Assembly (NCBI GenBank): GCA_029262855.1
Contig: JAJCYP010000030.1
Coordinates: forward strand, 5,111-69,110
Origin: Bacteroidota bacterium
GTDB lineage: Bacteria; Bacteroidota; Rhodothermia; Rhodothermales; UBA10348
Reading direction: 5' to 3'
Length of the DNA: 64,000 bases
Every line of letters starts with the position of its first letter. Position 1 is the first letter of the stretch. The notes beneath the pieces are model-generated. The model did no database searches and was not told where the DNA came from. It was given only the letters and a program-made list of their open reading frames with translations. Shown here one piece after another: positions 36,953-59,927 of the stretch. A program made the position numbers and the translations under genes.

Positions 36953-36970
36953 TGTCACAGAACTGTCACA
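36953..36970 (+). promoter_or_regulatory. direct repeat TGTCACA-GAAC-TGTCACA (11-bp period), Pho-box-like response-regulator site candidate
   Basis: An exact 7-mer repeated one helical turn apart, in the divergent intergenic region 36858-37091. It is followed by AAAGTTTG, which resembles the Bacteroidetes -7 element TAnnTTTG. Confidence 0.4.
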
Positions 36971-40235: not shown

Positions 40236-40244
40236 GATATCCTC

Positions 40245-41939: not shown

Positions 41940-41992
41940 GGAAATGAGGGGAGTTGGCTACTGAGATAATAGCGCCATCCATCTGACGGCAC

Positions 41993-42035
41993 AAGAGAAA
42001 CGGGAGACCGCCACGCGACCGGTGACGATCTCCCG
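41993..42035 (-). terminator. rho-independent terminator after S8 peptidase 1
   Basis: On the minus strand: CGGGAGA...TCTCCCG stem with inner GC pairs, followed by TTTCTCTT. It lies 57 nt after the stop. Confidence 0.65.
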
Positions 42036-42091
42036 CTCGTCTCGAACGGCGTCCGCGTCGGCCGCAGCCTGACAGGGACACCCCGGAGATG

Positions 42092-44923
42092 CTACTTGAT
42101 GAGGAGCATCGATTTGGTGACGCTTGTGGTGGGCGTCTCGAGACGATAGAGGTAGCGGCCGGAGGCGAGACGTGTCGCGTCAAACCTTGCAGAATGCTGA
42201 CCGGCCGACATATCTCCATCCATCAGAATCTGAACCAGGCGGCCCGTCAGGTCATAGACCGAGAGGCGTACCTGACCGCTTTCAGGCAGGTTGAAGCTGA
42301 TCTGCGTGGATGGGTTGAAGGGGTTCGGGTAGTTCTGATCGAGCGACAACTCGCCCGCGGCGGCCGTTTCGAACACCGGCTTCTCCTGGACCGGGCTATA
42401 GGGCTTTGCGACGATACCCTTGGCTGCGGACTCGCCATTGCCCGGCAGCGTAAATCCACCGAGGTAGCTGTCCGCGAAGCGAGTGGCGTGCCAGACATAG
42501 GCCGCACGGGTCACACGGGTGTTCGGCCTGAAGGCGGCGTGTACCGTCGGCTGCAGATCATAGGGCCCCTGGGTCAGGCTGAAGTGGGCCTGCATCATCT
42601 GGAGGTCAAGAGCCAGTTGGACGTGGCCTCGGAGCTCCGCCGGGATGTCTGCCCAGTCCGAAAGCTCGATCCGGGCGCCCATGTATTCGACGCTGACCGG
42701 TCCGTCTCCGATGGCTTCGGCAGCCGCCTGAATGCCCAGGCTCTGGACGAGGGAGTAGGCCAGGCTCGCACGCCTGACTTTTCCTCGCCAGTCGAAGTTG
42801 TTGCCGTCCGAGAACATCACGCCGTCCCAGATACCGTCGGCATCCTTCAGAGATGCACCGCGGGCCGTGGCCGCTTCGGCGAATGGAGCATACCGGTCGT
42901 TGACGCCGGAAGGATTGGACCCATCAAGATTCTGCCACTGACGGACGCCGGTTCCCATGACGAGGTACTCGGACAGTTCGCCCCGGTTGAGCTTGTCGTT
43001 CGGGCGGAAACGGCGCTCGCTGTCACCGTCGACCAGGAAGCGGGCCACCGCAAACTTGATCATCTCCTCGGCCTCGTGTCCTGCAATGTCGTCCAGCCCC
43101 TCAAAGTTGGATTGCAGCAGGGAGATTGACCCGTCGATGTAGCCGGGCGCGGCGTAGCCGTTCGTGAGGCCCAGCGGGTCAACGGCATTGCCGGAGATGG
43201 AGCCGATGCCGCGGGTTGTAAGCTTCCAGGTGCCGGGTTCGCCGGGTGCCGAGACGCCTATGGTCTGACCGATAACCGGAAGCGAAATGGACGATCCGTA
43301 GCGCTTTCCTGTTGGCGAATAGAGGACGAGCGCGACCGTGTTGTCGCCAACGTTGGCGTTCGCAGCAACGATGCCGATGCCTTCGCCAACCTCAAACTCG
43401 TGGTATTCCGGCTCGCCGACCGGGTTGTTGAAGATGGAGAAGTTCTCGCCGCCGGCCGCGGTGACCGAAGCGGAGGAGTTGAAGTCGCGGAAAATGTTGA
43501 CCGTGGCACCAAAGCCCGCACTGGATCCCGCCTTGCGCGCCAGAACCTCCTGAACGGCGGCATACGCATTGGCGTAGCCGGCACCGCTTTCCCAACCGGC
43601 TTTCTGTGGCATGTTGGTGGCGGTCTTCTCCAGGATGTCCTTGACATCCGTCCAGTTCAGGGTCGGATCGGCCTCAAGCATCAGGGCGATGATGCCGGAC
43701 ACGTGCGGGCACGACATCGAGGTGCCGCTGGCCACCGTGTAGTACGGCTGGAATTCGTCGTGCATGCCGTCCTGCATCGAGCCGGTTGAGGCGTTCGCCG
43801 ATACCACGTCCACGCCTGGAGCCGTCACGGTTGGGCGATCCACCCAGGTGTAGGTCTTGCCGTCGTACGGATCGACGTACGTGCCTCCCTGGCCGATGCG
43901 TCCGCGACTGGAAAAGCTCGCCAGGTTTCCGTCCTTGTCGCCTGCCGCCACGAGGGTTACCCAAGGCGCCTTCTTGTAGTTGCCGGTGATGGACGCAAAG
44001 CCAGGACCCGAGTTTCCGGCAGAGAAGACCACCATGATGCCCCGGTCGGCGACGCGCTTGGTGGCAACATTCGTCGGGTGATCCGGCTGGAAGTCAGTGC
44101 CGCTGTCGCTGCTTGAGCCAAACGAGTTGGAGACAACGCGGATGTTGTACTGGAACTGGTGCGTGAGGGCGTAATCGAATCCGCCGATGGTGTCCAGGAT
44201 GAAGATGACGGCGCCTGAACCATATCCGATGATGTCGGCCCCCGGGGCCACGCCTTCAAACTTGCCACCGGATGCCGCGCCCGTGCCCGCCACGATACCC
44301 GAGACGTGGGTTCCGTGGCCTCCGCCGTGGTCGGTGTTGGGCACGTTCTCCGTATAGGTTACCGGGAGCAGACTGCTCCAGGAGGCGAGGTTGGTCTGTC
44401 CGGCCACATTCTGGACCACGTTGTCCTTGAGGTCAGGATGGGTCCCGTCGACACCGGAGTCGTTGATCAGAACGCCGACGCCCTGTCCCGAGTAGGGCAG
44501 TCCCATGGCCGTACGGAAATTGGGGTCATTGCGCAGCCGGTCGACACCGGTGATGGCGGTCGAACCTTCGTTTTCCCATTCCAGCTGCTCGTTGAGCCAG
44601 ATGGAGCGGACACCGGAAATGCCGGCGATCCGCTCAATCTGGGCGGGAGTCGCGAGTACGCCTGCGATGGGCAGGCTCTGGAAGTAGAAGCCGCTGACGC
44701 CGACGGTCTGCAGGGCAGCCACCTGACCGGCGTTGAGTTGACCCTCACCGTGGAAGGTGACAACAACCTGAAGCTGGTCCAGGGCAGACGATGAGTTCAG
44801 GGCGCTCTGCAGCGAACCGCCCATGGTCTGGGCCGTGAGGTTCGAGGGAGCGGAGAGGAGCAGGGCAACGACGAGGGCCGTGAACCGGAGTCCTCTGGCG
44901 AGTGTGTGGAGCGTGTTCTTCAT
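42092..44923 (-). CDS. secreted S8 (subtilisin-family) serine peptidase with three SLH-like repeats and T9SS C-terminal sorting domain (paralog 1)
   Basis: Signal peptide. Catalytic triad contexts LINDSGVDGTHPDL, GGHGTHVSG and SGTSMSCPHVSG. C-terminal NYPNPFNPSTQISF...VYDLTGRLV...GRYLYRL...LLIK. Confidence 0.9.
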   Translation of the reverse strand: MKNTLHTLARGLRFTALVVALLLSAPSNLTAQTMGGSLQSALNSSSALDQLQVVVTFHGEGQLNAGQVAALQTVGVSGFYFQSLPIAGVLATPAQIERIAGISGVRSIWLNEQLEWENEGSTAITGVDRLRNDPNFRTAMGLPYSGQGVGVLINDSGVDGTHPDLKDNVVQNVAGQTNLASWSSLLPVTYTENVPNTDHGGGHGTHVSGIVAGTGAASGGKFEGVAPGADIIGYGSGAVIFILDTIGGFDYALTHQFQYNIRVVSNSFGSSSDSGTDFQPDHPTNVATKRVADRGIMVVFSAGNSGPGFASITGNYKKAPWVTLVAAGDKDGNLASFSSRGRIGQGGTYVDPYDGKTYTWVDRPTVTAPGVDVVSANASTGSMQDGMHDEFQPYYTVASGTSMSCPHVSGIIALMLEADPTLNWTDVKDILEKTATNMPQKAGWESGAGYANAYAAVQEVLARKAGSSAGFGATVNIFRDFNSSASVTAAGGENFSIFNNPVGEPEYHEFEVGEGIGIVAANANVGDNTVALVLYSPTGKRYGSSISLPVIGQTIGVSAPGEPGTWKLTTRGIGSISGNAVDPLGLTNGYAAPGYIDGSISLLQSNFEGLDDIAGHEAEEMIKFAVARFLVDGDSERRFRPNDKLNRGELSEYLVMGTGVRQWQNLDGSNPSGVNDRYAPFAEAATARGASLKDADGIWDGVMFSDGNNFDWRGKVRRASLAYSLVQSLGIQAAAEAIGDGPVSVEYMGARIELSDWADIPAELRGHVQLALDLQMMQAHFSLTQGPYDLQPTVHAAFRPNTRVTRAAYVWHATRFADSYLGGFTLPGNGESAAKGIVAKPYSPVQEKPVFETAAAGELSLDQNYPNPFNPSTQISFNLPESGQVRLSVYDLTGRLVQILMDGDMSAGQHSARFDATRLASGRYLYRLETPTTSVTKSMLLIK

Positions 44924-44935
44924 GGGTAAAGGCTT

Positions 44936-47389
44936 CTAGTATTGTGCGAAGTAGCGGACCGCGGCGACGGCGTAGTCGGCGCGGGTCGCGTTCGCAGTGG
45001 GCTCAAAACGGGCGGTCACGGTGGGCTCGGCGTCGAATGCCCCCTGACTGAGGTCGAAGAAGACGTTGAGCAGGCCCAGGTCGATAGCGATTTGCACGTA
45101 GCCGGCCTTTGGGCCCAGCCCGTCTGCATCGGTGACGGGGACCCTGGTCCCGTTGTAATTGGCGGTTACCGAGCCTTCAAAACCGGCCGCGGCGGACGAC
45201 AGTCCGAGGCTCTGGACCAGCGAGTAGGCCAGGTCGGCCCGGCTGACCGATCCGCTCGGGTTGAAGGAGCCGCTCGTTTCGAGGACGCCGTCGGCGATCT
45301 GAGCACGGTCCCGCAAGGCGGATCCGCGGGTGGCGACGGCTTCGGCGAAGGGCGCCTTGTCAGCAGACACGTCACCGAAGGTGGTGGAACCGTCTCCCTG
45401 ACGGATGCCGGCCCCGAGAACCAGGTACTCGGCCAACTCGATACGTGTCAGCCGCTGGTCCGGAGCGTAGTTGCCTCCGGGAAGTCCGTCGATGAGTTGC
45501 TCGGCGACGGCCGATTGGATGGCCGCGGACGCCGGATGACCGTCGATGTCATTCAGGCCCGTGAAGCCGTTAACGGTCTCAAAGGAAATCTTGCCGTCCA
45601 CCTGCTCAGGCAGGGACACCGTGTTGTTTCCTGTCCCGTTCTGGATGCCACGAATCTCGAGTGTCCAGGTGCCGGGCATCGGGCTCGTGACGATCTGGGC
45701 ACGCGCATATTCCAGCGTGAAGAGGAGCGTGGTGCCACTCAGGTACTCGGTGCCATCGGGCGCGATCAGTACCGGATAGATGGGATTTCCGGTCTCCCCG
45801 GCAACGCCGCCCGCGGAGAAGCGGGCAGCCAGGGTCGTCAGTCCAGCCGGGACCTGGAAGGCCATCCGGTTTCCATCGGCCGACAGTTCCGGCCGAGGGT
45901 TGAAGTCGATCGAAAACGCGGTGTCGATGCGGTCCGAGTCGACAAAAGCGTTGAAGTCCCGGGTGCTCGTGCGGGTCGTCCCATAGTCCCGGAGGCCGAG
46001 GGCCATCTGAACGGCGGCGTACGCGTTGACGTATCCCGATCCGACCTCCCAGCTTTCGCGGCCGGGCATGTTTGTGGCCGACCGCTGCAGAATGTCCTTG
46101 ACCTCATCGGGGCTCAATGATGGATTCGCTTCCAGTATGAGGGCAACGATGCCGGCCGCATGTGGCGTGGCCATCGAGGTGCCGCTCATGTGGGTGTAGA
46201 AGGCAGCATTCGCACCCAGTACATCCACATCCGCCTCGGCTGCCAGCAGTGGCAGGGAGCCGGTGGTGGCCCGGGTCGAGATGATGTCGACTCCTGGGGC
46301 GACGATGGTAGGCTCGTTGAAGTAGGTCCAGGAGCGGTTGTCTGGGGTCGTGAAATTGCCGGAGTCCCCTTCCACTCCGCGTGATGAGAAGTCAACCAGC
46401 GTGGCTGCCTTCGTGCCGGCACCCACCGAGATCACCCAGGGAGCCACGGCATACGGGTTGTGGGTATCCTCATCCGGGCCAGAGTTGCCCGCAGCAAACA
46501 GCACGGTGATACCGCGCTTGTAGGCGGCATAGGACGCGACGTTGATCGGGTGGTCAGGATTGAAGGTGCCGCCTGAGCCCCATGAATTGGTAATGACCCG
46601 GATGCCATAGCGGAACTGATTGGTGATGGTCCAATCGAAGCCGCCTATCGTGTCCAGGATGAGCAGGACTGCGCCGGATCCGTAGCCGATCATGTCAGCG
46701 CCCGGCGCGACACCGGCGTGCTGACCACCCGACTGCTGACCGGTCCCGCCGACCGTTCCGGCGACGTGCGTACCGTGTCCCGAGCCGAGGTCGGTGTTTT
46801 CCTGATCTTCGAGATATACGATGGGCGCCAGATCATCGACGCCGTGAGGATTGGTCGCTCCCTGCACATTCTGCACGACATGCCTCAGATCGGGATGTGA
46901 CGCATCGATTCCTGAGTCGTGAACCACGACGCCTACGTTCTTGCCGCTGAACGGAAGACCCATGGCGTTCCGCATGCCGGAGTCCGAGACGAGCTTGTTG
47001 ACCCCGGTCAGGTCTCGAGCGTCCTTGTTGAAGTAGGTCTGCTGCTCGTTGGCCCAGATCGAGCGAACCCCGCTCATCCCGGCGACTTGGAGGATCTGGT
47101 CTGGCGTGGCAACGATGCCCGCGATGGGGAGGCTCTCAAAAAAGACGCCCTGGCTGATGCCCAGATCGGTCAGCGCCTGGACCTGTGAGGCGTCAATCGC
47201 GCCTTCTCCATGGAAGGTCACGACGACAGTCATTGGTTCGGTGGGCTCCGCAGACGCCAGCGTGGCATCCAGCCCGGGTCCGAAGACAGCACTTTGTGCC
47301 CGGCTGACACCGGAACCTGCCAACAGCAGGAGGGCCACCATGGCAACCGGGCGCAACCACGGCGAGAACAAGTTGGTAGAAAATAACAT
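44936..47389 (-). CDS. secreted S8 serine peptidase with SLH-like repeats, no T9SS tail (paralog 2)
   Basis: Signal peptide. VVHDSGIDASHPDL, GSGHGTHVAG and SGTSMATPHAAG. It ends after the third SLH-like module (..AVRYFAQY). Only 12 nt separate it from paralog 1. Confidence 0.9.
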   Translation of the reverse strand: MLFSTNLFSPWLRPVAMVALLLLAGSGVSRAQSAVFGPGLDATLASAEPTEPMTVVVTFHGEGAIDASQVQALTDLGISQGVFFESLPIAGIVATPDQILQVAGMSGVRSIWANEQQTYFNKDARDLTGVNKLVSDSGMRNAMGLPFSGKNVGVVVHDSGIDASHPDLRHVVQNVQGATNPHGVDDLAPIVYLEDQENTDLGSGHGTHVAGTVGGTGQQSGGQHAGVAPGADMIGYGSGAVLLILDTIGGFDWTITNQFRYGIRVITNSWGSGGTFNPDHPINVASYAAYKRGITVLFAAGNSGPDEDTHNPYAVAPWVISVGAGTKAATLVDFSSRGVEGDSGNFTTPDNRSWTYFNEPTIVAPGVDIISTRATTGSLPLLAAEADVDVLGANAAFYTHMSGTSMATPHAAGIVALILEANPSLSPDEVKDILQRSATNMPGRESWEVGSGYVNAYAAVQMALGLRDYGTTRTSTRDFNAFVDSDRIDTAFSIDFNPRPELSADGNRMAFQVPAGLTTLAARFSAGGVAGETGNPIYPVLIAPDGTEYLSGTTLLFTLEYARAQIVTSPMPGTWTLEIRGIQNGTGNNTVSLPEQVDGKISFETVNGFTGLNDIDGHPASAAIQSAVAEQLIDGLPGGNYAPDQRLTRIELAEYLVLGAGIRQGDGSTTFGDVSADKAPFAEAVATRGSALRDRAQIADGVLETSGSFNPSGSVSRADLAYSLVQSLGLSSAAAGFEGSVTANYNGTRVPVTDADGLGPKAGYVQIAIDLGLLNVFFDLSQGAFDAEPTVTARFEPTANATRADYAVAAVRYFAQY

Positions 47390-47615
47390 GACGAAGGAGT
47401 ATTTGCGGTCCGCTCGTCACCGAGAAGCCCCCTTGCTTCTCCGGGATTTGCGGGTGCGGTTTGGAGACAGTGCAAGTATCCCCCACCACATATCCTTCGG
47501 TATATCGGTCGATCGTCCTTCCTTTCGTCGGAATTCGGGATTCGCCGTGGTAGGAACTTGCCGCCGGGGCTGTCGGACTTCCGGCAGCGCTTCGTAGGAA
47601 CCGTTCGTCCCGGCC

Positions 47616-47633
47616 TGCAGGAAATGTCCTACA
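47616..47633. promoter_or_regulatory. 18-bp palindrome TGCAGGA-AATG-TCCTACA (operator candidate; alternatively a hairpin after S8 paralog 3)
   Basis: An inverted repeat with 16/18 identity to the site at 50555-50572. Exact GTAGGAAC 8-mers lie nearby at 47550-47557 and 47594-47601. Confidence 0.4.
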
Positions 47634-47659
47634 GGGTGCCAAGCCCAGGTCCCTGGGGC

Positions 47660-50422
47660 CTACTTGACCAGGAGCATTGAGCGGGTCAGAACCCCTCGCG
47701 GCGTCGTCAGACGATACAGGTATCGTCCCGTGGCCAGTCCGCGTCCGTCGAAACGCACTCGGTGGATTCCGGAAGGCAAAACGCCGTCGTGCAGGACCCC
47801 GACACGCCGACCGGTCAGGTCGAAAACTTCCAGAAGTGCATGAGTCTCCGATGCCAGGGTGAAAGCGATCGTCGTGACCGGATTGAAGGGGTTCGGGTAG
47901 TTCTGCGTCAACTCGGGTCCGCCATCGACGGGCGTGTCCTGGACCGTCTCGACCGAGCGGCGCGGGCTCCGGGTTTCGAATCCGCCCTTGGCGGTGAAGC
48001 CCAGGTCCGGAAGCGGAGCGGACAGGAAAGAGTCCGAGAAGCGAGAAACGTATACCGCGTACTCGCTCCTTGTGACTCTGTCGTCAGGCTCATACAGCGG
48101 GCCCTGAGGCGAGTCCGCTGCTTCCATAATGCCGAGGTCAAGCGCCAGCTGAACATAGCCGCGAAGCTCGGGCGCAATGGCCGACCAGTCGGCCAGTTCC
48201 AGATTGCCGTCGTAGACAGGGCGCTCTCCGTGAGACCGGGCCGCCTCCTGGAGGGCCAGGCTCTGCACAAATGAGTAGGCCAGCCTTTCCCGCGTGACCT
48301 TACGCTTGGGTTGGAAAGCACCCTCCCGAAGTCGCATCACCCCGTCCAGAAGCCCGTCGGTGTCCATCAGAGCGGCCCCGGTTGATAGCACAGCAGCGGC
48401 AAAGGGCGCTTCGGACTCCTTCAGGTCCTCGGGTCCACCCTCGTCCAGCGCCTTGCGTATCCCCGCTCCCATAACGAGGTATTCGGCAATCTCAATGCGC
48501 CTGAGACGATCCTCCGGGCGAAAGCGTCGGGCACGATCTCCATCCACCAGGCGACGCGAAACGGCGTAGGCAATGACAGATTCATCGGGATGGCCGGAAA
48601 TGTCACCAAGGCCCTCGAGGTCAGTGGCCAGGAGGGCAACGTGGCCTCGAACCTGTCCGGGAACGCCAATCCCGTTCGTGAGGCCGAAGGCGTCCAGGCG
48701 AAGGCCTGCCCAGGCTCCAACTCCTCGCACCTCCAGCGTCCATTCTCCGGGGACTGCCGGGGCTGTGACGGTGACACCCGCCTGATATGCCGGGATCGAA
48801 ACGCCTGACTCGTATTGCTGGCCAACCGGATTCGTCAGGACGAGAGCGGCCGTGTTTTCCCCGATCGTGGCGGCGGCCGAGACGAGGTCGGTATCCTCAG
48901 CGACCGGAAATACCAGGCGCTGCGATGTACCGGCGGGCGAGAAGGCGAGATCAAACGGAATTGCGGGCTGCGACGGAGCCAGCGTGACGTTGGCGTTGAA
49001 GGACCGCCGGAGATTCACCGTTTCGGCGAGTCCGGCCTGTCCGTCGCGATGCAGGACGGTTTGGACAACCGCCGCGTGAGCGTTGACGTACCCTGCCCCG
49101 GCTTCCCATGCTGCGCCGCCGCTCATGTTCGTCGCCGTGCTCTCAAGGATGTCCTTGACGCGCCGCCAGTCCAACGTTGGATCGGCCTCAAGCATCATCG
49201 CGATGATGCCGGCAACATGCGGGCATGCCATCGAGGTGCCCGTGGCCACGGCATAGTAGGGCACGAACTCAGGGTGGAGCGACCAGTGCATCGATCCGGT
49301 CGAGGCGTTGGCGGAGATCACCGCCGTACCCGGGGCCGTGATTGTCGGACGATCGACCCAGGTGTACACGGTCCCGTCCCGGCCGGTGAACGTGCCGCTC
49401 TCACCAATCCGTCCTCGCGAAGAAAAACTCCCCAATCGCCCCTGATTGTCCCCTGCGGCAACGGTCACCACCCAGGGAGCCTTCTTGTAGTTGCCCGTGA
49501 TCGTGCCGGAAACGGGTCCAGAGTTGCCGGCCGAAAAGACGACGATGATCCCTCGATCGGCCAGCTTCTTCGTCGCGACGTTTGTCGGATGATCAGGCTG
49601 GAAATCAGTACCGGAGTCATCGGATTCCCCAAACGAGTTGGAAACCACCCGAATATTGTATTCGAACTGATGGGTGAGGGCATAATCGAATCCGCCCAGC
49701 GCATCCAGAACGAGTACCACGGCACCGGAACCGTAGCCGATGATGTCGGCTCCCGGGGCTACACCCTCGAATTTTCCGCCTGACGCCGCGCCCGTGCCCC
49801 CCAGAATGCCTGCGACGTGAGTGCCGTGCCCGCCGCCGTGATCTGTGTTCGGGATGCCACCAACGTAGGTTACCGGGAGAAGGGAGCTCACCGCAGCGAG
49901 GTTGGTCTGACCCGCTACGTTTTCCACCACGTTGTCTTTAAGGTCGGGATGTGTCGCGTCAATTCCGGAGTCGTTGACCAGAACGCCGATACCCCGGCCC
50001 GAGTACGGAAGGCCAGCTGCAGTCCTCAAGCCTGCATCGGCGCGCAGTCGGTCCACACCGGTCGCCGCGGTCGGCCCGCGGTTTTCGAGTACCAGACGAT
50101 CGTTCAGCCAAATCGAGCGGACGGAAGAGAGCGCAGCGATCGCTTCAATCTGGCCGGGCGTGGCCAGAAGGCCCGCGATGGGCAAACTGCGAAACCAGAA
50201 CCCGGTGACTCCGATCGCCTGCAATTCGGCTATCTGCCCACTGGAGATGGGTCCTTCGGCTTCGAAGGTGACCACCACCTCGAGCTGCTCCAGGGGCGCC
50301 GCGGATGCCAGCGCCTCTTGAAGGGTAGGTCCGAGCGTCTGAGCCGACGCCGGCGAGGCAATCGGCAGAAGGACCACTGTCAGTGCAGCGAGGACGGAAA
50401 ACCGGCGGGCGGATAGGCTCAC
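47660..50422 (-). CDS. secreted S8 serine peptidase with SLH-like repeats and T9SS C-terminal sorting domain (paralog 3)
   Basis: LVNDSGIDATHPDL, GGHGTHVAG and TGTSMACPHVAG. C-terminal NYPNPFNPVTTIAF...VFDLTGRRV...GRYLYRL...LLVK. A GTG at 50422 gives the signal peptide (M)SLSARRFSVLAALTVVLLPIASPASA. The ORF-track extension to 51136 is rejected. Confidence 0.85.
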   Translation of the reverse strand: MSLSARRFSVLAALTVVLLPIASPASAQTLGPTLQEALASAAPLEQLEVVVTFEAEGPISSGQIAELQAIGVTGFWFRSLPIAGLLATPGQIEAIAALSSVRSIWLNDRLVLENRGPTAATGVDRLRADAGLRTAAGLPYSGRGIGVLVNDSGIDATHPDLKDNVVENVAGQTNLAAVSSLLPVTYVGGIPNTDHGGGHGTHVAGILGGTGAASGGKFEGVAPGADIIGYGSGAVVLVLDALGGFDYALTHQFEYNIRVVSNSFGESDDSGTDFQPDHPTNVATKKLADRGIIVVFSAGNSGPVSGTITGNYKKAPWVVTVAAGDNQGRLGSFSSRGRIGESGTFTGRDGTVYTWVDRPTITAPGTAVISANASTGSMHWSLHPEFVPYYAVATGTSMACPHVAGIIAMMLEADPTLDWRRVKDILESTATNMSGGAAWEAGAGYVNAHAAVVQTVLHRDGQAGLAETVNLRRSFNANVTLAPSQPAIPFDLAFSPAGTSQRLVFPVAEDTDLVSAAATIGENTAALVLTNPVGQQYESGVSIPAYQAGVTVTAPAVPGEWTLEVRGVGAWAGLRLDAFGLTNGIGVPGQVRGHVALLATDLEGLGDISGHPDESVIAYAVSRRLVDGDRARRFRPEDRLRRIEIAEYLVMGAGIRKALDEGGPEDLKESEAPFAAAVLSTGAALMDTDGLLDGVMRLREGAFQPKRKVTRERLAYSFVQSLALQEAARSHGERPVYDGNLELADWSAIAPELRGYVQLALDLGIMEAADSPQGPLYEPDDRVTRSEYAVYVSRFSDSFLSAPLPDLGFTAKGGFETRSPRRSVETVQDTPVDGGPELTQNYPNPFNPVTTIAFTLASETHALLEVFDLTGRRVGVLHDGVLPSGIHRVRFDGRGLATGRYLYRLTTPRGVLTRSMLLVK

Positions 50423-50554
50423 TGTGCGCAGGGTGGCTGGGTCCTGGAATACAGCAGAGAAAATGGAAATCAATCGCCCGTTCTGCAGTCGGCACAGGAC
50501 GCAATGGAGCGTAAGAAGGTGGACCTCGAGGCCGTAGGCGGGACGGTATTCGTT

Positions 50555-50572
50555 TGTAGGAAAAGTCCTACA
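50555..50572. promoter_or_regulatory. 18-bp perfect palindrome TGTAGGA-AAAG-TCCTACA (operator candidate)
   Basis: Perfect 7-bp inverted repeat with a 4-nt spacer, in the divergent region between S8 paralog 3 and the Asp-box propeller gene. 16/18 identical to 47616-47633. Confidence 0.45.
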
Positions 50573-50579
50573 GCGATCC

Positions 50580-50597
50580 TGTGACATATTTGTGACC
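50580..50597. promoter_or_regulatory. direct repeat TGTGACA-TATT-TGTGACC (11-bp period), same half-site as 36953-36970 on the opposite strand
   Basis: Its reverse complement, GGTCACA-AATA-TGTCACA, matches TGTCACA-GAAC-TGTCACA at 36953. It sits 7 nt from the palindrome. CATATTTG (50585-50592) resembles a -7 element. Confidence 0.4.
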
Positions 50598-50674
50598 ATT
50601 GCACCTGTACATTCCTGAATGCGGCACCGGTCGGTGGCCGCGCTACCCCCTTGGCACAAACCCCATTTAAGACA

Positions 50675-53600
50675 ATGAGGACCCACACACTCCTCCGTGC
50701 GGCAGGCCTGGCCCTGTGCAGCGTACTGGTTTTGATCCCGACTGCTGACGCGCAAAAGCTGGATCTCGACAAGCTGAAGGCCATGCAGGCGCGGGCGATT
50801 GGCCCGGCCGGTATGAGTGGCCGCGTCACGGCCATCGATGTAGTCCTGAGAGACCCCGCGGTGATCTACGCCGGCACCGCCTCGGGCGGACTGTGGCGAT
50901 CCACGAATGCAGGGATCAGCTGGGAGCCCGTCTTCGACGACCAGCCGGTGCACTCCATTGGAGCCGTGGCCGTAAACCAGAGCAATCCGGACGTGATCTG
51001 GGTCGCAACAGGAGAGGGCAACCCTCGCAACAGCGCCAACGCTGGAAACGGCATCTACAAGTCGATCGATGGCGGGCGAAGCTGGCGGCACCTTGGCCTC
51101 GAGAACAGCCGGACGATTCACAGGCTCATCCTGCATCCCACCAATCCGGACGTGGCCTACGCGGGTGTTCAGGGCCCCCCGTGGGGCGAGGGAGAGGAAC
51201 GCGGCGTCTACAAGACTACCGACGGTGGCGAGACCTGGGTCCGGATTCTGTATGCCAACGTGAAGACCGGAATTGCTGATCTGGTCATGGATCCCGTGAA
51301 TCCCGACAAGCTCATCGCCGCAATGTGGGAATTCCGCCGGTGGCCCTACTTCATGAAGTCGGGTGGCGAAGGATCCGGGATCTGGGTCACGTATGATGGT
51401 GGAGAAAACTGGACCCAGCGCACCAGCGAAGACGGGCTGCCAGAGGGCGAACTCGGTCGGATCGGCCTGTCGATCGCGCCGAGCGATCCATCGATCGTCT
51501 ATGCCATTGTCGAAGCGAAGGAAAATGTGTGGCTACGGTCCACCGACGGTGGCTTTTCGTTCGAAGAGGTCAACAAGGGACAGCCGGTCACCAATCGCCC
51601 GTTCTACTACAACGACATCTTCGTCGACCCAGTAAACGAGAATCGGGTCTACTGGCTCTCGTCCAGTGTCCGAGTCACCAATGACGGGGGACGGACCTTC
51701 GAGCCCATCCCGCCACAGGGTACCCCGGGTGGCGGTATCCATCCGGACCACCACGCATTCTGGGTTCATCCGGATGATGCGGATTACCTCATCGAAGGGA
51801 ACGACGGTGGCCTCAACATCTCCCGTGATCGTGGCAAGACCTGGCGCTTCGCGGAAAACCTCCCGCTGGCCCAGTTCTACCACATCAACGTGGACAACAG
51901 CATTCCCTACAACGTGATGGGAGGGCTGCAGGACAACGGCTCCTGGATCGGCCCTGCCTACCTCTGGAGAGCCGGTGGAATCCGGAATTCGGACTGGAAG
52001 GAGGTAGGATTTGGAGACGGTTTCGATGTCACGGTGATGCCGGACAACGAACGATTCATGTACTCGATGAGTCAGGGCGGCAGTCTGCGTCGATTTGACT
52101 CGGAGACCGGGACCGGCGTCAGCATCCGACCGATCCATCCGGATGGTGAGTTCCTCCGGTTTAATTGGAATGCGGCCTTTGCCCAAAGTCCCCAGAATGC
52201 TGCTACGATCTACTATGGCAGCCAGTACCTACACAAGTCCACCGATCGTGGTAACAACTGGACGATCATCTCGCCGGATCTGACAACGAACGATCCGGAG
52301 AAGCAAAAACAGATCGACTCGGGAGGACTCAACTATGATGTCACCGGTGCCGAGAACTACACCACCATCGTCTCGATTGCCCCGAGTCCACTCGACGGGA
52401 ACGTGATCTGGGCCGGGTCGGATGACGGGAACGTCCAGGTGACGCGTGATGGGGGAGCAACTTGGACCAATACGGTCGGCGGAATGCGCGGGCTCGCCAA
52501 GGGCGGTTGGGTCACCCAGATCAAGGCGTCCACCTACAATGCCGGCGAGGCGTTCGTGGTGATTGAGGATCATCGCCGCAACAACTGGGAGACGTACCTC
52601 TACCACACCCGCGATTACGGTTCCACGTGGTCCCGGATGGCGGAGGACGCCTGGGGCTATGCCCTCTCGTTCGTACAGGACCCTGTTCAACCCCGTCTCA
52701 TGTTCCTCGGAACGGAGTTCGGCGTATGGGTCTCCGTGGACGCTGGAGCGAACTGGACCCAGTGGACGAATGGCATGCCGACCATGTCCGCCATGGATAT
52801 GGTCATACATCCCCGCGAACATGACCTCGTGGTCGGGACGTTTGGTAGAGCGATTTACGTTCTCGATGACATTCGGCCACTGAGGGCGATCGCCACGGAA
52901 GGTGCGGAGATCCTGGATGCTCGCCTGAAGGCAATCGCGGCCCCGGATGCTTATCTCGCCCAATGGGGACAGGCAGCGGGGACCCGGTTCTCGGCCAGTG
53001 CCATGTTTGAAGGGGAGAACCGTGATCGCGGAGGCATGATCTCCTACATCGTCAATCGTCCCGAGCGGTCGGGTGACGGTGAGCGGGCAGGAGGCGAGGC
53101 AGATGCCGAACGGCCGGCGGCCATGCGGGCGCGCCGAGCGGCGGCAGGAGGCCCAGGACGGGCTGGACGCGCAGGCGGCGCTCGGAATCGGGTCAAGATC
53201 GAGATTGTAAACGGCGATGGCGAGGTGATCCGGACGGCGAACGGACCCGCCGAGCCCGGACTGAATCGCTACTTCTGGCGGCTTCGCCAGAAGGGGTTCA
53301 GTCAGCCCGGAGGCGGGTTCCGTGGCGGCGGTCGATTCGGTGGTGGCGGTGGCGCCGACCAGGAACCGGCCGGACCCGACGTGCTGCCGGGCACCTACAA
53401 GGTGAGGCTGACGATGGGTCAGGCGAGCGACTCGACCAGCATCACCGTGCATCCGGACCCGAGGCAGGACTACAACCGCGCCGGCGCTGAGGCCCGGGTC
53501 GCGCTGTACCAGAGCATGGAGGGACTGTTCACCGCCGCAACTGACGCCCTCAAGCAGCTGACCGATGCCGGCGAGGCCCACGACTGGATTGGCGATAAGC

Positions 53601-53959
53601 TGTCGGCGATGGACGAGGAGGACCGCGGAGATCTGATGGAAGAGCACCGTGCGGTCAAGGACTCCCTGGACGCCGTGAGGGCCGTGATCTTTGGCGAGCA
53701 GGGAGCACAGGGCATCAGGCGTGATCCGACTACCGTCTCTTCCAGGATGCGAACCGCACTCGGATACATCAGCCGGAGCACGGACATGCCCGGAGCCACC
53801 GAGGATGCGGCCATGGCCCAGAGTCGCGCCGCGATCTCCGAGCTCGTCGAGTTGGTGAACGGTTTCATTGGCGGCCGATGGGCAGAGTATGTCCAGACCA
53901 TCGAGGGCGCCAATCTTTCGTTGTTCACCCCCATGGAGCCCGTTCGCTTGAACAACTGA
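50675..53959 (+). CDS. Asp-box (BNR) repeat, VPS10/sortilin-like beta-propeller protein (paralog A)
   Basis: Signal peptide MRTHTLLRAAGLALCSVLVLIPTADA at ATG 50675. About 11 Asp-box-like motifs (SIDGGRSW, TTDGGETW, TYDGGENW, SRDRGKTW, TRDGGATW...). Confidence 0.8.
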   Translation: MRTHTLLRAAGLALCSVLVLIPTADAQKLDLDKLKAMQARAIGPAGMSGRVTAIDVVLRDPAVIYAGTASGGLWRSTNAGISWEPVFDDQPVHSIGAVAVNQSNPDVIWVATGEGNPRNSANAGNGIYKSIDGGRSWRHLGLENSRTIHRLILHPTNPDVAYAGVQGPPWGEGEERGVYKTTDGGETWVRILYANVKTGIADLVMDPVNPDKLIAAMWEFRRWPYFMKSGGEGSGIWVTYDGGENWTQRTSEDGLPEGELGRIGLSIAPSDPSIVYAIVEAKENVWLRSTDGGFSFEEVNKGQPVTNRPFYYNDIFVDPVNENRVYWLSSSVRVTNDGGRTFEPIPPQGTPGGGIHPDHHAFWVHPDDADYLIEGNDGGLNISRDRGKTWRFAENLPLAQFYHINVDNSIPYNVMGGLQDNGSWIGPAYLWRAGGIRNSDWKEVGFGDGFDVTVMPDNERFMYSMSQGGSLRRFDSETGTGVSIRPIHPDGEFLRFNWNAAFAQSPQNAATIYYGSQYLHKSTDRGNNWTIISPDLTTNDPEKQKQIDSGGLNYDVTGAENYTTIVSIAPSPLDGNVIWAGSDDGNVQVTRDGGATWTNTVGGMRGLAKGGWVTQIKASTYNAGEAFVVIEDHRRNNWETYLYHTRDYGSTWSRMAEDAWGYALSFVQDPVQPRLMFLGTEFGVWVSVDAGANWTQWTNGMPTMSAMDMVIHPREHDLVVGTFGRAIYVLDDIRPLRAIATEGAEILDARLKAIAAPDAYLAQWGQAAGTRFSASAMFEGENRDRGGMISYIVNRPERSGDGERAGGEADAERPAAMRARRAAAGGPGRAGRAGGARNRVKIEIVNGDGEVIRTANGPAEPGLNRYFWRLRQKGFSQPGGGFRGGGRFGGGGGADQEPAGPDVLPGTYKVRLTMGQASDSTSITVHPDPRQDYNRAGAEARVALYQSMEGLFTAATDALKQLTDAGEAHDWIGDKLSAMDEEDRGDLMEEHRAVKDSLDAVRAVIFGEQGAQGIRRDPTTVSSRMRTALGYISRSTDMPGATEDAAMAQSRAAISELVELVNGFIGGRWAEYVQTIEGANLSLFTPMEPVRLNN

Positions 53960-53994
53960 TGCTATTCTTCCGGACCGAAACCCGCCGCCCTGCC

Positions 53995-54062
53995 ATGCGC
54001 CTTCTATTCCTCGCCGTCACACTTGTCGTTGTCGCACCCGTCATCGCCCAGGAGAAGCCTCC
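53995..54062 (+). other. orphaned signal-peptide-encoding segment, out of frame with the downstream amidohydrolase ORF
   Basis: ATG 53995 encodes MRLLFLAVTLVVVAPVIAQEKP. That frame terminates at TGA 54130-54132, while the amidohydrolase frame is open but start-less over the same stretch. Confidence 0.6.
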
Positions 54063-54128
54063 TGGGATGTCTCGGCCCCGTTCGGCCCCACGTCGGAGGT
54101 CTCCTTCACAACGGACGAGGGCACATGG

Positions 54129-57100
54129 ATGAGCCTGGACGTTTCGCCAGACGGGCGCACGATTGTCTTCGACATGATGGGAGACCTCTACACGATACCC
54201 ATCGCTGGTGGAACAGCCACCTCCATCACCACGGGCCCGGCCTGGGACGTGCAGCCCACATTCAGCCCGGACGGCTCCCGCATCGCCTTCACGAGCGATC
54301 GGGCCGGCGGCGACAATATCTGGACGATTGCCGCCGATGGATCCGACGCCCGTCAGGTGACGAAGGAAAAATTCCGGTTGCTCAACGGCCCTGCCTGGAC
54401 GCCGGACGGCGCGTACCTCCTGGCTCGCAAGCACTTCACGTCCTCGCGCTCTCTCGGGGCCGGTGAGGTCTGGATGTATCACGCGTCGGGCGAAGCCTCA
54501 GGCGGGATTCAACTCACCAAGCAGAAGAACAACCAGCAGGATCAGGGCAATGAGATTACACTCAGTCCTGACGGCCGATATGTCTACTTTTCCGAGGATA
54601 TGTCGGGTGGGTCCACGTTCCAGTACAACAAGGATCCCAACGGCATGATCTACGCCATCCGGCGGCTGGATCGGGAGACGGGGCGACTGGAGAACTACAT
54701 CACCGGCGCCGGAGGTTCGGCGCGCGCTACCCCATCGCCCGACGGAAAGACCATCGCCTTTGTGCGCAGGGTGAGGGAGAAGTCCGTCATCTTCCTCTTC
54801 GATACAACCACGGGACGGCAGTGGCCCGTTTTCGACGGGCTGAACCGGGACCAGCAGGAAGCCTGGGCCATCTTCGGCGTCTATCCGAGGATGGACTGGA
54901 CGCCCGATGGATCCAGCCTTGTGTTCTGGGCGGGCGGCAAGATCAATCGCCTGGACGTGGCATCCCGTGCGGTGGCGGACATTCCCTTCGAGGTGCAGAT
55001 CGATCGGACCATCCACGAGGCGCTGCGCGTGCCCGTCACTGTCCATGAGCCCAGCTTCGAGTCCAGGATGATTCGGGATGTGGCCACCGCGCCCGATGGC
55101 AGCATGATGGTGTTCCATTCGGCGGGCTTCCTCTACACCAAGGCGCTGCCGAACGGCGTGCCGAGGCGGCTGACGTCCCAGACCGAGCATTGGGAATACG
55201 ACCCCTCCTTCAGCCCGGACGGAAGAACCCTGGTGTACACCACCTGGAATGACCGGGACTATGCGGCGATCCGACGGATTTCGGTCACCGGAGGCGTCAG
55301 TCAGGTCCTGTCAACGCGTCCAGGGCACTACTATGAGCCCCGATTCTCTCCCGATGGGGCCCAGATTGTCTACCGGCGGGGCGGAGGCAGTTCGCTGACC
55401 GGTCGCCTGCATGGCATGGAGACCGGGATTTATCGCATGCCCGTCGCAGGAGGGCCCGCCACACGTGTGAGCCGATCAGGGTCTGATGCCCGCTTTGGTC
55501 CCCGCGGGAAGCGGGTCTACTTCCTGAGCGGCGGAGGGCTTTCGAAGGAATACCGGTCCGTGGATGTGAACGGGGCCGACGAGCGCACCCACCTGAACCT
55601 CAAATACGCCAACACGGCCGTTCCCAGCCCCGACTTCAAGTGGGTGGCATTCAACGAACTGTTCAATGCCTACGTCGTCCCGTTTCCAATGACCGGGGGA
55701 GCGATCGATCTCAACAAGGACTCGAAAGCGGTGCCCGTCAAGCAGGTTACGCGCGACCTGGGGACGGATCTGCATTGGTCGGCGGACTCGAAAACGCTTC
55801 ACTGGATGGTGGGGCCTGAGTACTACTCGCGCTCGCTGGCGGAGTCGTTTGCCTTTGTTGATGGTGCGCCTGAAGAGCTGCCCGCGATTGACAGCACCGG
55901 CGTGAGCGTCGGGTTGACGCTTCAGTCGGATGCTCCTTCGGGAACGACTGCCATCACCAACGCCCGACTGGTCACCATGAATGGCGATGAGGTCATCGCC
56001 CGCGGAACGATCCTGGTGAGCGGCAATCGAATTGCCGCGATTGGCGTCGATGTGGAAATCCCGGCAGGGGCAACGGTTATCGATGCGGCTGGGAAGACGG
56101 TCATGCCGGGGTTTGTGGATGCCCATGCGCATCTCAATCACTTCTTTACCGGCCCCATCCCGCAGGAATCCTGGGTGTACTCGGCCAATCTGGGCTTCGG
56201 CGTGACAACCACCCACGACCCGTCGGCAAACACGGAGACGGTCTTCACGCTTTCGGAGATGGTGAAGGCCGGCCGGATCATGGGTCCGCGGATCTACTCG
56301 ACCGGTACGATCCTCTACGGGGCCGACGGCGACTTCAAGGCCGAGGTCAACTCGCTGGACGATGCCCGGAGTCACCTCCGCCGGATGAAGGCAGTCGGCG
56401 CGATCAGCGTCAAGAGCTACAACCAGCCGCGACGCGAGCAGCGCCAGCAGATCATGCAGGCCGCGCGGGAGCAGGGCCTGAACGTGGTGCCCGAGGGCGG
56501 CTCGACCTTCAACCACAACATGACCATGATCATCGATGGTCACACGGGGATCGAGCATAGCGTGCCTGTCGCACCGCTGTACCGGGACGTGCTGGAGACC
56601 TGGCGGCACTCGAAGACCGGCTATACACCCACCCTGGTGGTGGTCTATGGCGGGCCCAGCGGTGAACGCTTCTTCTACGAGCGGGACAACGTGTGGGAGA
56701 ACGAGCGACTCCTTCGCTACGTGCCACGGGACAACGTGGATCCGCAGTCCCGGCGCAGGTGGAAGTCAGCCGACGACGAGTACTACCACGACGACGTGGC
56801 CGCGGAGGCCAAGAAACTGGTCGACCAGGGCAACACGGTCCAGATCGGTGCCCACGGACAGATGCAGGGCCTGGCGTTCCATTGGGAGATGCGCATGCTC
56901 ACCCAGGGTGGATTCACGCCGCACGAGGCGCTCCGATCTGCGACGCTCCACGGAGCCCGCTACCTCGGCATGGACGCGGACATCGGCTCGCTCGAGGTGG
57001 GCAAGCTGGCCGACTTGATCGTTGTCGATGGAGACCCGCTGGCCCGAATCGAGGACGCCGAGAACGTGACCCACGTGATGGTGAACGGGCGGATCTGGAA

Positions 57101-57143
57101 CGCGATGGAACTGCCGCGAGGGGCGACGGCTGACAGTTGGTAG
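54129..57143 (+). CDS. TolB-like beta-propeller / amidohydrolase fusion protein (coordinates from the first in-frame start; the true 5' end is probably 53995 via a frame correction)
   Basis: N-terminal PD40/TolB-type repeats (SPDGRTIVF, FSPDGSRIAFTSDR, SPDGKTIAFV, FSPDGRTLVY, FSPDGAQIVY). C-terminal amidohydrolase motifs (PGFVDAHAHL, GHTGIEH). Confidence 0.85.
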   Translation: MSLDVSPDGRTIVFDMMGDLYTIPIAGGTATSITTGPAWDVQPTFSPDGSRIAFTSDRAGGDNIWTIAADGSDARQVTKEKFRLLNGPAWTPDGAYLLARKHFTSSRSLGAGEVWMYHASGEASGGIQLTKQKNNQQDQGNEITLSPDGRYVYFSEDMSGGSTFQYNKDPNGMIYAIRRLDRETGRLENYITGAGGSARATPSPDGKTIAFVRRVREKSVIFLFDTTTGRQWPVFDGLNRDQQEAWAIFGVYPRMDWTPDGSSLVFWAGGKINRLDVASRAVADIPFEVQIDRTIHEALRVPVTVHEPSFESRMIRDVATAPDGSMMVFHSAGFLYTKALPNGVPRRLTSQTEHWEYDPSFSPDGRTLVYTTWNDRDYAAIRRISVTGGVSQVLSTRPGHYYEPRFSPDGAQIVYRRGGGSSLTGRLHGMETGIYRMPVAGGPATRVSRSGSDARFGPRGKRVYFLSGGGLSKEYRSVDVNGADERTHLNLKYANTAVPSPDFKWVAFNELFNAYVVPFPMTGGAIDLNKDSKAVPVKQVTRDLGTDLHWSADSKTLHWMVGPEYYSRSLAESFAFVDGAPEELPAIDSTGVSVGLTLQSDAPSGTTAITNARLVTMNGDEVIARGTILVSGNRIAAIGVDVEIPAGATVIDAAGKTVMPGFVDAHAHLNHFFTGPIPQESWVYSANLGFGVTTTHDPSANTETVFTLSEMVKAGRIMGPRIYSTGTILYGADGDFKAEVNSLDDARSHLRRMKAVGAISVKSYNQPRREQRQQIMQAAREQGLNVVPEGGSTFNHNMTMIIDGHTGIEHSVPVAPLYRDVLETWRHSKTGYTPTLVVVYGGPSGERFFYERDNVWENERLLRYVPRDNVDPQSRRRWKSADDEYYHDDVAAEAKKLVDQGNTVQIGAHGQMQGLAFHWEMRMLTQGGFTPHEALRSATLHGARYLGMDADIGSLEVGKLADLIVVDGDPLARIEDAENVTHVMVNGRIWNAMELPRGATADSW

Positions 57144-58840
57144 TGGTGGAGTCCTGGGTTTTTGGTGTGGTCGGATCTGAATCGCTTGTTGCGAGGGGTC
57201 GCGCTCTGGCTGAACGTTGCCCTGGAAGCCGCAGCCGTACATCCAGGACCGCCCTTCTTGTTGCCTCTCCTGCGGGCCCGACGTCTCTGTTTTCGGTTCG
57301 GGCTCATGGCGCGACGGCTCTCAGCGGATCAGTTTTCGTGAGTCGGTCCAACGGTGGGCAGTTCTTGCTGGACGAGCATCATCTCGCCGGACAGTGGGAG
57401 CACCGGCTGTCCTCTCTCAAGCTCGGGCAGTTTGCTGCTGCTTGCCTGAATGACTCGACAATCGAGTTGTACACCGACCCGAACGGCCTGAGGAGTTTCT
57501 TCGTTCATGAGTCCGACGCGGGAGCGATTTTCTCGACCCACCTCCACCTCATCACCTCTCTGACCGGGGTCCTCGACTTGGACCTCAGTCAGTTTGGCTC
57601 TCATTGGTTCAGTCACAACCAGATGAACAAGGGCAGCCTTGTAAGGGGTGTTGGCCGGATATGTGCGGGCGATGCCATGGAGCTCCGGGCGAGTCCTTGC
57701 GGCGCCTCAGTCATTCGCCGACCTCGTCCCGTTGGTCGGGATTGTCCGGACTCACCCTTGGCCTGGGTTGGCGAGCTATTGAACAATATCGACCTCCCTA
57801 TAGCCCTTTCTCTATCTGGAGGCCTCGATTCGCGCGTCCTACTCGGTCTGGCTCAGTCGGCAGGTATTCGGCCAAGGCCGTTTGTGTTCGGAGATGAGCG
57901 CAGCCCTGATGTCCAGATTGCACAAATGGCGGCCGCTGCCTGTGGCCTGGAGTGCCTTCATGTCCCTTCGCGCTCGCTGGACGACTGTGTCTTGGGAGGA
58001 GATCTCGAGCGGTATGCCCGCGACAACTGGTGCGCCACCCCTCTCTCGGCAGCCGGGCACCTTACTTCCTACGACAGGGTATTCGAATCCAGTCCTGGCG
58101 CCATTCTGATCGATGGCGGGTTCGGTGAAATCGGCCGTGGGCAGTTCTATCGGAGGGTTGAGGTCTTGAGGAAGCTGCGAAGGCTTCACCGAGGCCCGTT
58201 GGGGGCCGTCATGAGCGCTGTATCATTCAAGCGTGTCAACGTTTTCCGAACTGAGGCACTCGCGATGATGACGCGTGGCGTCGAATCGGCAGCGTCGGAG
58301 TTTCGTGACCAGCTTGTTGCGGCTCGTAGTTCGAGACCGGAGGACACAGTCGCTGCCAGGATTCGACGACAGAATTTCTTCGGACTGACCCAGGGCTGGA
58401 TGGACTCTCAGGGACCGTCGCTGATGCCCTTCGCGCAGGAGGCATTCGTCCGCTCGGTCCTCAAGATTCCCAGCCGCGAGCGAGTAGGAGGCCGCCTCTT
58501 CCGGAGACTTCTCAAGGCGGAGGCACGACAGCTGACGAGGCTACCACTCGCCAAGGGTCGCCACGCCCTTCCGTTTAGACTTCCATCACCCTTGTATCCG
58601 TTGCACTTTCGACTCGCCGCAGGCGCACCCGGTGCGCCCTCCGCGTTCGGTGGCGCCGCGACCCGGCAATTGCTGTACGACTCTCTGAATTCCCTGCACT
58701 CGCGGGAGTGGGTCGCCCTGGACCACGCGAGGGCGGAGCAGTTGCTGGACTCCTTCTATGCTGGCCAAAGACACTTGGAAAGCGAGGTGTCGTGGTTGGG
58801 AGCCGTGCTCTTGTGGCGGATGTCCAACTCCATCAACTGA
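57137..58840 (+). CDS. asparagine synthetase B-like protein (PP-loop ATP pyrophosphatase) lacking the N-terminal Cys nucleophile
   Basis: PP-loop LSLSGGLDSRVLLG and an AsnB-like N-domain remnant YTDPNGLRSFF. There is no Cys after any candidate start (TTG 57137; GTG 57143, 57146, 57167). It overlaps the amidohydrolase stop by 7 nt. Confidence 0.7.
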   Translation: MVVVESWVFGVVGSESLVARGRALAERCPGSRSRTSRTALLVASPAGPTSLFSVRAHGATALSGSVFVSRSNGGQFLLDEHHLAGQWEHRLSSLKLGQFAAACLNDSTIELYTDPNGLRSFFVHESDAGAIFSTHLHLITSLTGVLDLDLSQFGSHWFSHNQMNKGSLVRGVGRICAGDAMELRASPCGASVIRRPRPVGRDCPDSPLAWVGELLNNIDLPIALSLSGGLDSRVLLGLAQSAGIRPRPFVFGDERSPDVQIAQMAAAACGLECLHVPSRSLDDCVLGGDLERYARDNWCATPLSAAGHLTSYDRVFESSPGAILIDGGFGEIGRGQFYRRVEVLRKLRRLHRGPLGAVMSAVSFKRVNVFRTEALAMMTRGVESAASEFRDQLVAARSSRPEDTVAARIRRQNFFGLTQGWMDSQGPSLMPFAQEAFVRSVLKIPSRERVGGRLFRRLLKAEARQLTRLPLAKGRHALPFRLPSPLYPLHFRLAAGAPGAPSAFGGAATRQLLYDSLNSLHSREWVALDHARAEQLLDSFYAGQRHLESEVSWLGAVLLWRMSNSIN

Positions 58841-58861
58841 GAAGGGCTCCGGCCTCCACGC

Positions 58862-59770: not shown

Positions 59771-59927
59771 CTGTCCGGCCCGCGACGGTGCGAACGGGGC
59801 CTACATTGCCGGGACACTTGATGGAAATGACACTGGCCGACACACGTCCGCCGCTCCCGGTGATGGTCACCGGTCCGGCTCTCTTCTATATTGCAGCAAC
59901 ACCCTCTCACAACGACTCCCCCAACCG

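Follow-up and report, generated by a model that had tools for sequence, protein, structure and literature searches.

Two conserved DNA elements lie within 43 bp (50555–50597) of the divergent promoter region between a gene for a secreted S8 protease and a gene for a Sortilin/VPS10-BNR propeller protein in the window, the 64,000-nt stretch of DNA that was analysed. The first is an inverted repeat (IR; TGTAGGA-AAAG-TCCTACA, TGTAGGAAAAGTCCTACA; 50555–50572), which forms the distal head of a row of half-sites in front of the S8 subtilase gene S8#1. The second is a direct repeat (DR; TGTGACA-TATT-TGTGACC, TGTGACATATTTGTGACC; 50580–50597, plus strand) with an 11-bp period, a candidate site for a tandem-binding activator at the -35 position of the propeller gene. 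The reading that we favour, at a probability of roughly 0.6, is that these are two independent protein-binding elements, with the IR row acting on the S8 genes and the DR acting on the propeller gene. The two elements are conserved in sequence and helical phase, keep their positions and occur separately from each other; that proteins bind them, which families these proteins belong to and whether they activate or repress are points that we infer.

The S8#1 gene (47660–50422, minus strand) starts with GTG and encodes a 920-aa subtilase with a T9SS sorting domain, as identified by Pfam and protein searches. It belongs to a tandem of three S8 subtilase paralogues on the minus strand. S8#2 (44936–47389; 817 aa) is 44% identical to S8#1 and is separated by a 12-bp gap from S8#3 (42092–44923), which also carries a T9SS sorting domain; an OPT peptide transporter gene comes after the tandem. 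On the plus strand, the propeller gene (50675–53959; 1094 aa, assigned by Pfam matches) is followed by PD40-amidohydrolase, Asn-synthase-like, glutaminase and second propeller genes. The gene order propeller, PD40/Tricorn-amidohydrolase, glutaminase and second propeller (50675–62987) is kept in relatives (L161–L164), and the Asn-synthase-like gene (57137–58840) is an insertion peculiar to the lineage of the window. Many of the strong matches in a protein search with S8#1 (50–54% identity) are SLH-bearing S8 proteins of ~823 aa, which resemble S8#2 in size and domain type and come from Lysobacter, Steroidobacteraceae and other Gammaproteobacteria, perhaps because this type of protease was transferred horizontally.

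The 252-bp length given for the divergent spacer in an earlier, sequence-only reading stands provided that S8#1 starts at GTG 50422. This start is most likely, with a signal peptide after the GTG and orthologues of 914–918 aa. The S8#1 frame is open across the entire spacer (50423–50587, minus strand), and one public gene call begins S8#1 at ATG 50587, within the DR, which gives 975 aa compared with 914–920 aa in orthologues. The call is probably an over-extension of the annotation, because the distances from the IR to the S8#1 start differ among orthologues by non-multiples of 3 (the proximal end of the IR lies 133, 97, 113 and 132 nt upstream). The spacer sequence is the same in two independent public assemblies (L166 and L167).

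Loci were fetched for the orthologues of the propeller and of S8#1, and the nearest relatives are uncultured Rhodothermales. Propeller orthologues are 70–90% identical to that of the window: 90% in L001 (contig JBLFXH010000050), 85% in L161 (the same lineage as L169), 79% in L162 (genome GCA_017643395.1), 72% in L163/L164 and 70% in L165. S8#1 is 61–62% identical in L168 and L169, and the S8 protein of L170 is 53% identical. The locus L001 lacks ~10.7 kb, comprising the whole S8 tandem and the OPT transporter gene (window 39850–50579 compared with L001 5660–5907). At the left edge of this deletion, the last ~50 codons of a 177-aa membrane-protein gene (window 39702–40235) persist as a C-terminal remnant; the right edge adjoins the DR.

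The IR had been described as a perfect 18-bp palindrome standing alone. Its 7-bp arms are indeed perfect, but the 4-nt centre AAAG is not self-complementary, which makes the element 7-N4-7 in structure; it also heads a row and is not an isolated site. A second copy (TGCAGGA-AATG-TCCTACA, TGCAGGAAATGTCCTACA; 47616–47633), matching the first at 16 of 18 positions as the sequence-only reading had stated, heads the corresponding row upstream of S8#2. Two IR matches were found in none of 100 shuffles. When TGTAGGA-N4/5-TCCTACA was searched with at most two mismatches across the 14 arm positions, all nine matches in 205 kb of related loci fell in the regions upstream of S8#1 or S8#2, in five lineages, compared with a background of six matches in 1.67 Mb of distant loci. 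The S8#1 copy is kept in the L161/L169 and L162 spacers; in the L168 spacer one arm is degenerate, with the other arm and the phased units retained. The S8#2 copy is kept in L162, L168, L169 and L170. The IR is absent in L001, which has no S8 genes, and both the IR and the row are missing from the more distant S8 loci L171 and L172. In L170, itself a rather distant relative, a 20-bp tandem repeat (CTCGCCTGTCGCCGCGATT; 403–515) present in 5.8 copies directly adjoins the distal side of the IR of an S8#2-like gene; the repeat unit contains TGTCGC and GATTC, which are similar to the DR core and the row unit.

An IR remnant (GAAAAGTCCT) was also observed in L164, at the same offset from the DR, although that relative has no S8 genes; given this remnant, the IR may once have served the propeller promoter as well. 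At 6790–6815 of L164, in the spacer from which an OPT gene and a gene for a PadR-family regulator diverge, ATGTAGGAATTTTACAAT contains a GTAGGAA half-site.

From the gene-proximal arm of each IR, TCC(T/G)AC hexamers run towards the S8 gene every 22–23 bp. The S8#2 row (47527–47622, minus strand) has five half-sites that satisfy a strict definition of the unit, TCC[TGC][AG]C: TCCTGC, TCCTAC, TCCGAC, TCCTAC and TCCGAC (plus-strand hexamers 47617–22, 47594–99, 47572–77, 47550–55 and 47527–32), at intervals of 23, 22, 22 and 23 bp. A sixth unit, CCGATA (47504–09), is tentative. The S8#1 row (50488–50561, minus strand) consists of TCCTAC, GCCTAC, TCTTAC and GCCGAC (plus-strand hexamers 50556–61, 50534–39, 50511–16 and 50488–93), spaced by 22, 23 and 23 bp; in the window only the first of these meets the strict pattern and the last three come from relaxed matching, as do the outer row units in general, for which we estimate a false-extension chance of ~13% per step. 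The regions orthologous to the S8#1 row contain strict chains of two units in L162 and L169 and three units in L168. Upstream of S8#2, five strict units are found in the window, four in L169 and three in L168. Chains of at least three strict units at 22–23 bp spacing occur solely in S8 upstream regions across 161 kb of related DNA (five units in the window, four in L169, three and three in L168), with 0.005 expected per 64 kb. The conserved unit reads approximately cGATTCCkACr, about 10 bp in length, and is repeated every 22–23 bp in eight upstream regions. No partner half-sites were seen by eye 10 bp upstream of each row unit, and the inner units look like single half-sites.

A conserved block (GGATACTTGCAnnGTCTC; window 47463–47481, minus strand) precedes the S8#2 start by ~75–90 nt in four lineages. 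It lies 21 nt after the conserved CCGATA, which is in phase as the sixth row unit, and may be a core promoter or a leader element of S8#2.

Could the IR instead function as an RNA hairpin, whether as a leader or attenuator, as a processing or stability element or, for the copy at 47616, as the terminator of S8#1? Predicted hairpins are more stable than shuffled sequences on three of four strands (z = -3.4 to -4.0), and a U-G wobble is present on the S8 strand in three S8#2 copies. However, across the nine copies of the arms, none of the seven pairs shows a two-sided change, and the unpaired positions (5 of 63 cells) all arise from one-sided changes; in the L168 spacer copy, one arm is degenerate. 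The half-sites carry on as a phased direct-repeat row, which would be meaningless for RNA. No T-run follows the IR, a scan for terminator-like sites (a GC-rich stem followed by a T-run) reported none at either copy, and Rfam gave no match. The position of the IR tracks the downstream start codon and not the upstream stop codon: the distance to the S8#2 start is 211–227 nt in five lineages, whereas that to the S8#1 stop spans 26–231 nt. Because the former is steady and the latter variable, the 47616 copy is an element upstream of S8#2 and not a terminator of S8#1, and the 50555 copy is downstream of no gene, in agreement with the earlier view that the IR is not a terminator. An RNA role is therefore highly improbable. 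Since the arms lack compensatory changes, with sequence and helical phase conserved, the IR points to protein binding rather than to an RNA hairpin.

A second alternative is that the elements are neutral leftovers, remnants of a minisatellite or of tandem duplication that were copied along with the S8 genes, with the DR marking either the ends of a mobile segment or a hot spot for recombination or deletion. The young 20-bp tandem repeat beside the L170 IR is compatible with such an origin, as are the L001 deletion, which stops at the DR, and the two DR copies in the window, which are inverted relative to each other and flank 13.6 kb. Against this, the IR motif persists before both paralogues, although S8#1 and S8#2 are 44% identical and S8#1 orthologues are ~61% identical; at 44% identity, neutral DNA from that duplication would no longer be recognisable. 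Moreover, the cores and their phase alone survive, with the DNA between the cores diverged, and a transposase or integrase gene was not found in the segment. We consider a neutral origin very unlikely.

The DR is also present in two copies in the window, as had been reported. The second (TGTCACA-GAAC-TGTCACA; 36953–36970), termed site A, is located in the divergent spacer between genes for a 535-aa protein that carries a long (EP)n repeat (35250–36857) and a 425-aa protein with a signal peptide (37092–38369). The latter, beta-rich and without a Pfam or NCBIfam match, resembles an outer-membrane barrel. Against an expectation of 0.02, the window contains two exact occurrences of GTGACA-N5-GTGAC (50581 and 36954, both in divergent spacers), whereas the lone heptamer TGTGACA is at background (5 observed, 5.5 expected). 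What departs from chance is therefore the doubling at 11 bp, because the single heptamer is not over-represented. A third exact copy was found in L162 (6802–6818), between the S8#1 and S8#2 genes, with no gene downstream on its own strand.

Both elements recur in orthologous spacers: the IR lies at orthologous positions in four other lineages, and both repeats of the DR are kept in L001 and L162. L164, L165 and L168 keep the first repeat alone, and the DR is absent from the L161/L169 spacer. In L001, homology to the window resumes exactly at the DR, where both heptamers are intact and two of the four spacer bases are changed; the DR is thus retained there although the whole S8 cluster is deleted. 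Site A is kept in L001 and absent in L164 and L169. The DR is hence present both at site A and in the propeller spacer (site B) in the window and in L001 and missing at both in the L169 lineage, and such co-presence and co-loss across two loci is the pattern expected for sites of one trans-acting factor. No DR was found upstream of the propeller gene in 159 distant loci (47–64% protein identity), so it is confined to a narrow clade.

At the propeller promoter, the DR is followed after 10 nt by TACATTC (50608–50614, plus strand), which is 20–21 nt from the first GTGACA and which we take as a putative -10-like box. The motif TA[CG]ATT[CT] is found in all seven lineages, 43–67 nt upstream of the propeller ATG, in alignments anchored on the motifs (a MAFFT alignment of the spacers was unreliable). 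GTGACA-N20/21-TA[CG]ATT[CT] is present in six of the seven (window, L001, L162, L164, L165 and L168), and the gap from the DR to the box is 10 nt in the window, L001 and L162. In L161/L169 the box is kept as TACATTT and GTGACA is lost.

An alternative is that GTGACA is itself a -35-like core-promoter element, which a sigma factor would recognise along with TA(C/G)ATT, and that the second repeat is incidental or lineage-specific. The first GTGACA alone is common to all six lineages that retain it, at a fixed 20–21 nt from the box, and it agrees with TTGACA at five of six positions. Yet a 20–21-nt spacer is over-long for sigma-70 and does not fit the -33/-7 geometry, and L161/L169 have the box without GTGACA. 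The 11-bp two-unit form, in addition, is found at site A, at site B and at L162 6802–6818, which are unrelated loci, against 0.02 expected; two of the three have no box. On balance, a core-promoter role for GTGACA is unlikely, and a two-unit protein-binding site remains the preferred reading of the DR.

The sequence-only reading had placed the propeller promoter elsewhere, at CATATTTG, as a -7 box of the Bacteroidetes type. The Bacteroidetes promoter has the -33/-7 form TTTG ... TAnnTTTG; the host belongs to the same superphylum (FCB group), and CATATTTG is one mismatch from TAnnTTTG. This assignment was not supported, as the element is not conserved (it reads CAGAATTG in L001 and CAGTTTCG in L162) and the conserved box TA(C/G)ATT(C/T) is located at another position. 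A -33 TTTG or TTG at ~19–21 nt from CATATTTG was not found, the nearest TTTG (50553–50556) being 28 nt upstream. TAnnTTTG is not enriched in the 64-kb window, where it occurs twice, both times within genes.

Other promoter and operator types were also compared. A sigma-70 scan gave no site in either spacer, and a relaxed search for TTGACA-like/TAnnnT pairs returned only the propeller pair. Across the whole window, sigma-70-type hexamer pairs are nearly absent, and the usual promoter form of the lineage is not apparent from the sequence; the searchable literature yielded nothing on Rhodothermus or Salinibacter promoters or transcription start sites. TGGCAC, close to the ATG of the propeller gene, and the conserved block before S8#2 were both rejected by eye as sigma-54 elements, the -12 TTGC being absent or wrongly spaced. 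An ECF-type reading of GGAAC within GTAGGAAC was rejected since the motif is on the wrong strand and lacks a -10 CGTC at 16–17 nt. The spacings likewise appear unsuited to NtcA (GTA-N8-TAC), TnrA and PadR (ATGT-N8-ACAT) operators. No regulator genes were found in the window and the related loci, except for a candidate ECF sigma factor gene (30527–31138).

In the sequence-only reading, the IR and the DR formed a fixed unit, abutting and phased. A composite operator of this kind, serving both divergent genes with CATATTTG as the -7 box of the propeller gene, would account for the 7-nt distance between the elements in the window, for the IR remnant of L164 at the same offset and for the proximity of a DR to an IR at two places in L162. 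The distance is not fixed, however: the gap is 6, 7, 16, 23 or 49 nt by case (16 nt in L168; the two sites of L162 have 49 and 23 nt). L161/L169 possess an IR but lack a DR, and the reverse is true of L001. With the failure of CATATTTG added, we give a composite operator little credence. The two motif classes in the spacer probably correspond to two regulators, as had been proposed, and the proposed protein-binding role of both is also upheld, as conserved cis-elements of this kind are best read as protein-binding DNA. What changes is the assignment, for the regulators would not converge on both genes: the evidence links the IR row with the S8 genes and the DR with the propeller gene.

The arrangement of the S8 rows suggests how a regulator might assemble on independent sites of this type. 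A dimer would bind the IR, and further copies would bind cooperatively to the phased half-sites, which are about two helical turns apart and would place successive sites near the same DNA face. The resulting complex would control the T9SS-secreted S8 proteases, S8#1 alone and S8#2–S8#3 as a pair, and upstream activation by the row is more likely than repression. At the propeller gene, the DR would provide a two-unit site in the -35 region, exactly 10 bp upstream of the box, from which a second, tandem-binding regulator could recruit RNA polymerase to a promoter without a usable -35.

Plasmid Rep initiators such as pPS10 RepA and R6K pi bind an IR operator as dimers and iterons as monomers. The layout of the S8 rows is similar to this iteron-plus-operator arrangement, as the IR shares its half-site with a direct-repeat row spaced at ~22 bp. 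Unlike plasmid iterons, the elements are chromosomal, duplicated before two protease paralogues and syntenic in five lineages; they have no AT-rich unwinding region, and the conserved core is just 6–10 bp. No rep gene was found beside the row in the window or in the syntenic loci of the five lineages.

Among chromosomal regulators, the LytTR family binds imperfect direct repeats of ~9–10 bp that are separated by 11–13 bp and located just upstream of the promoter (PMC6193735, PMC4227749). The period of such sites (AgrA, ComE and HdrR/BrsR) is 21–23 bp, and the rows described here, with 22–23 bp and ~10-bp units, are alike; AgrA-activated promoters have over-long -35/-10 spacers. Some LytTR regulators, for example FsrA, control secreted proteases. 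On the other hand, LytTR sites usually have two repeats and no inverted head, compared with four to six units and an IR head in these rows, and the unit cGATTCCkACr does not appear to fit the LytTR consensus. No gene for a LytTR regulator was seen close to the locus, whether in the window or among the fetched loci.

For the DR, the closest comparison is the Pho box, which consists of two 11-bp direct repeats, each a 7-bp repeat with a 4-bp spacer (PMC3978041). The DR is similar in having two repeats with an 11-bp period (50580–50597, 36953–36970 and L162 6802–6818), and its core TGTCAC resembles CTGTCAT of the Pho box. The orientation is opposite, the propeller strand reading TGTGACA. In E. 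coli, the Pho box takes the place of the -35 and lies 10 bp before the -10; the propeller promoter, with 10 nt between the two 11-bp units and the putative -10-like box, would copy this layout of PhoB-dependent promoters. The DR further differs from the Pho system in that its second repeat is not kept beyond close relatives and no response-regulator gene is nearby. Identification of the DR as a Pho box was rejected: although its geometry agrees, its orientation and the neighbouring genes (Sortilin/BNR propeller, S8 proteases, the 425-aa protein and the 535-aa (EP)n protein) do not. The window yielded no pst or pho genes, and the genes adjacent to the DR have no phosphate link. By analogy, the DR resembles an OmpR/PhoB-type site in the way it may work, and no identity with the Pho box is claimed. 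Since neither the window nor the fetched loci contain a regulator gene, the family assignments, namely LytTR-type or another monomer-per-repeat family for the row and OmpR/PhoB-type for the DR, are guesses.

A more far-reaching proposal, which we put forward tentatively and as possible rather than probable, is that the IR-headed row of four to six half-sites at 22–23 bp is the operator of an undescribed regulator that polymerises along one DNA face and switches on T9SS-secreted S8 proteases in Rhodothermales. The row would then be an iteron-like assembly re-used at two ancient paralogues, and a second, lineage-restricted tandem-binding regulator would control the Sortilin-like propeller gene through the DR. 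The architecture of the row is unusual and well conserved, and cis-regulatory sites as such are known in kind.

To our knowledge, the control of T9SS-secreted proteases outside Porphyromonas and Flavobacterium is poorly described. The analysis offers a solid lead for regulatory annotation, of fairly ordinary gene-control wiring and with no new principle. It provides two conserved cis-elements with gene assignments, which are usable as baits in DNA-affinity experiments and as motifs in regulon scans, and the presence/absence pattern of the DR over the lineages could single out the gene of its regulator. The propeller protein of ~1,090 aa is widespread in Bacteroidota, and its control would be a first clue to its role.
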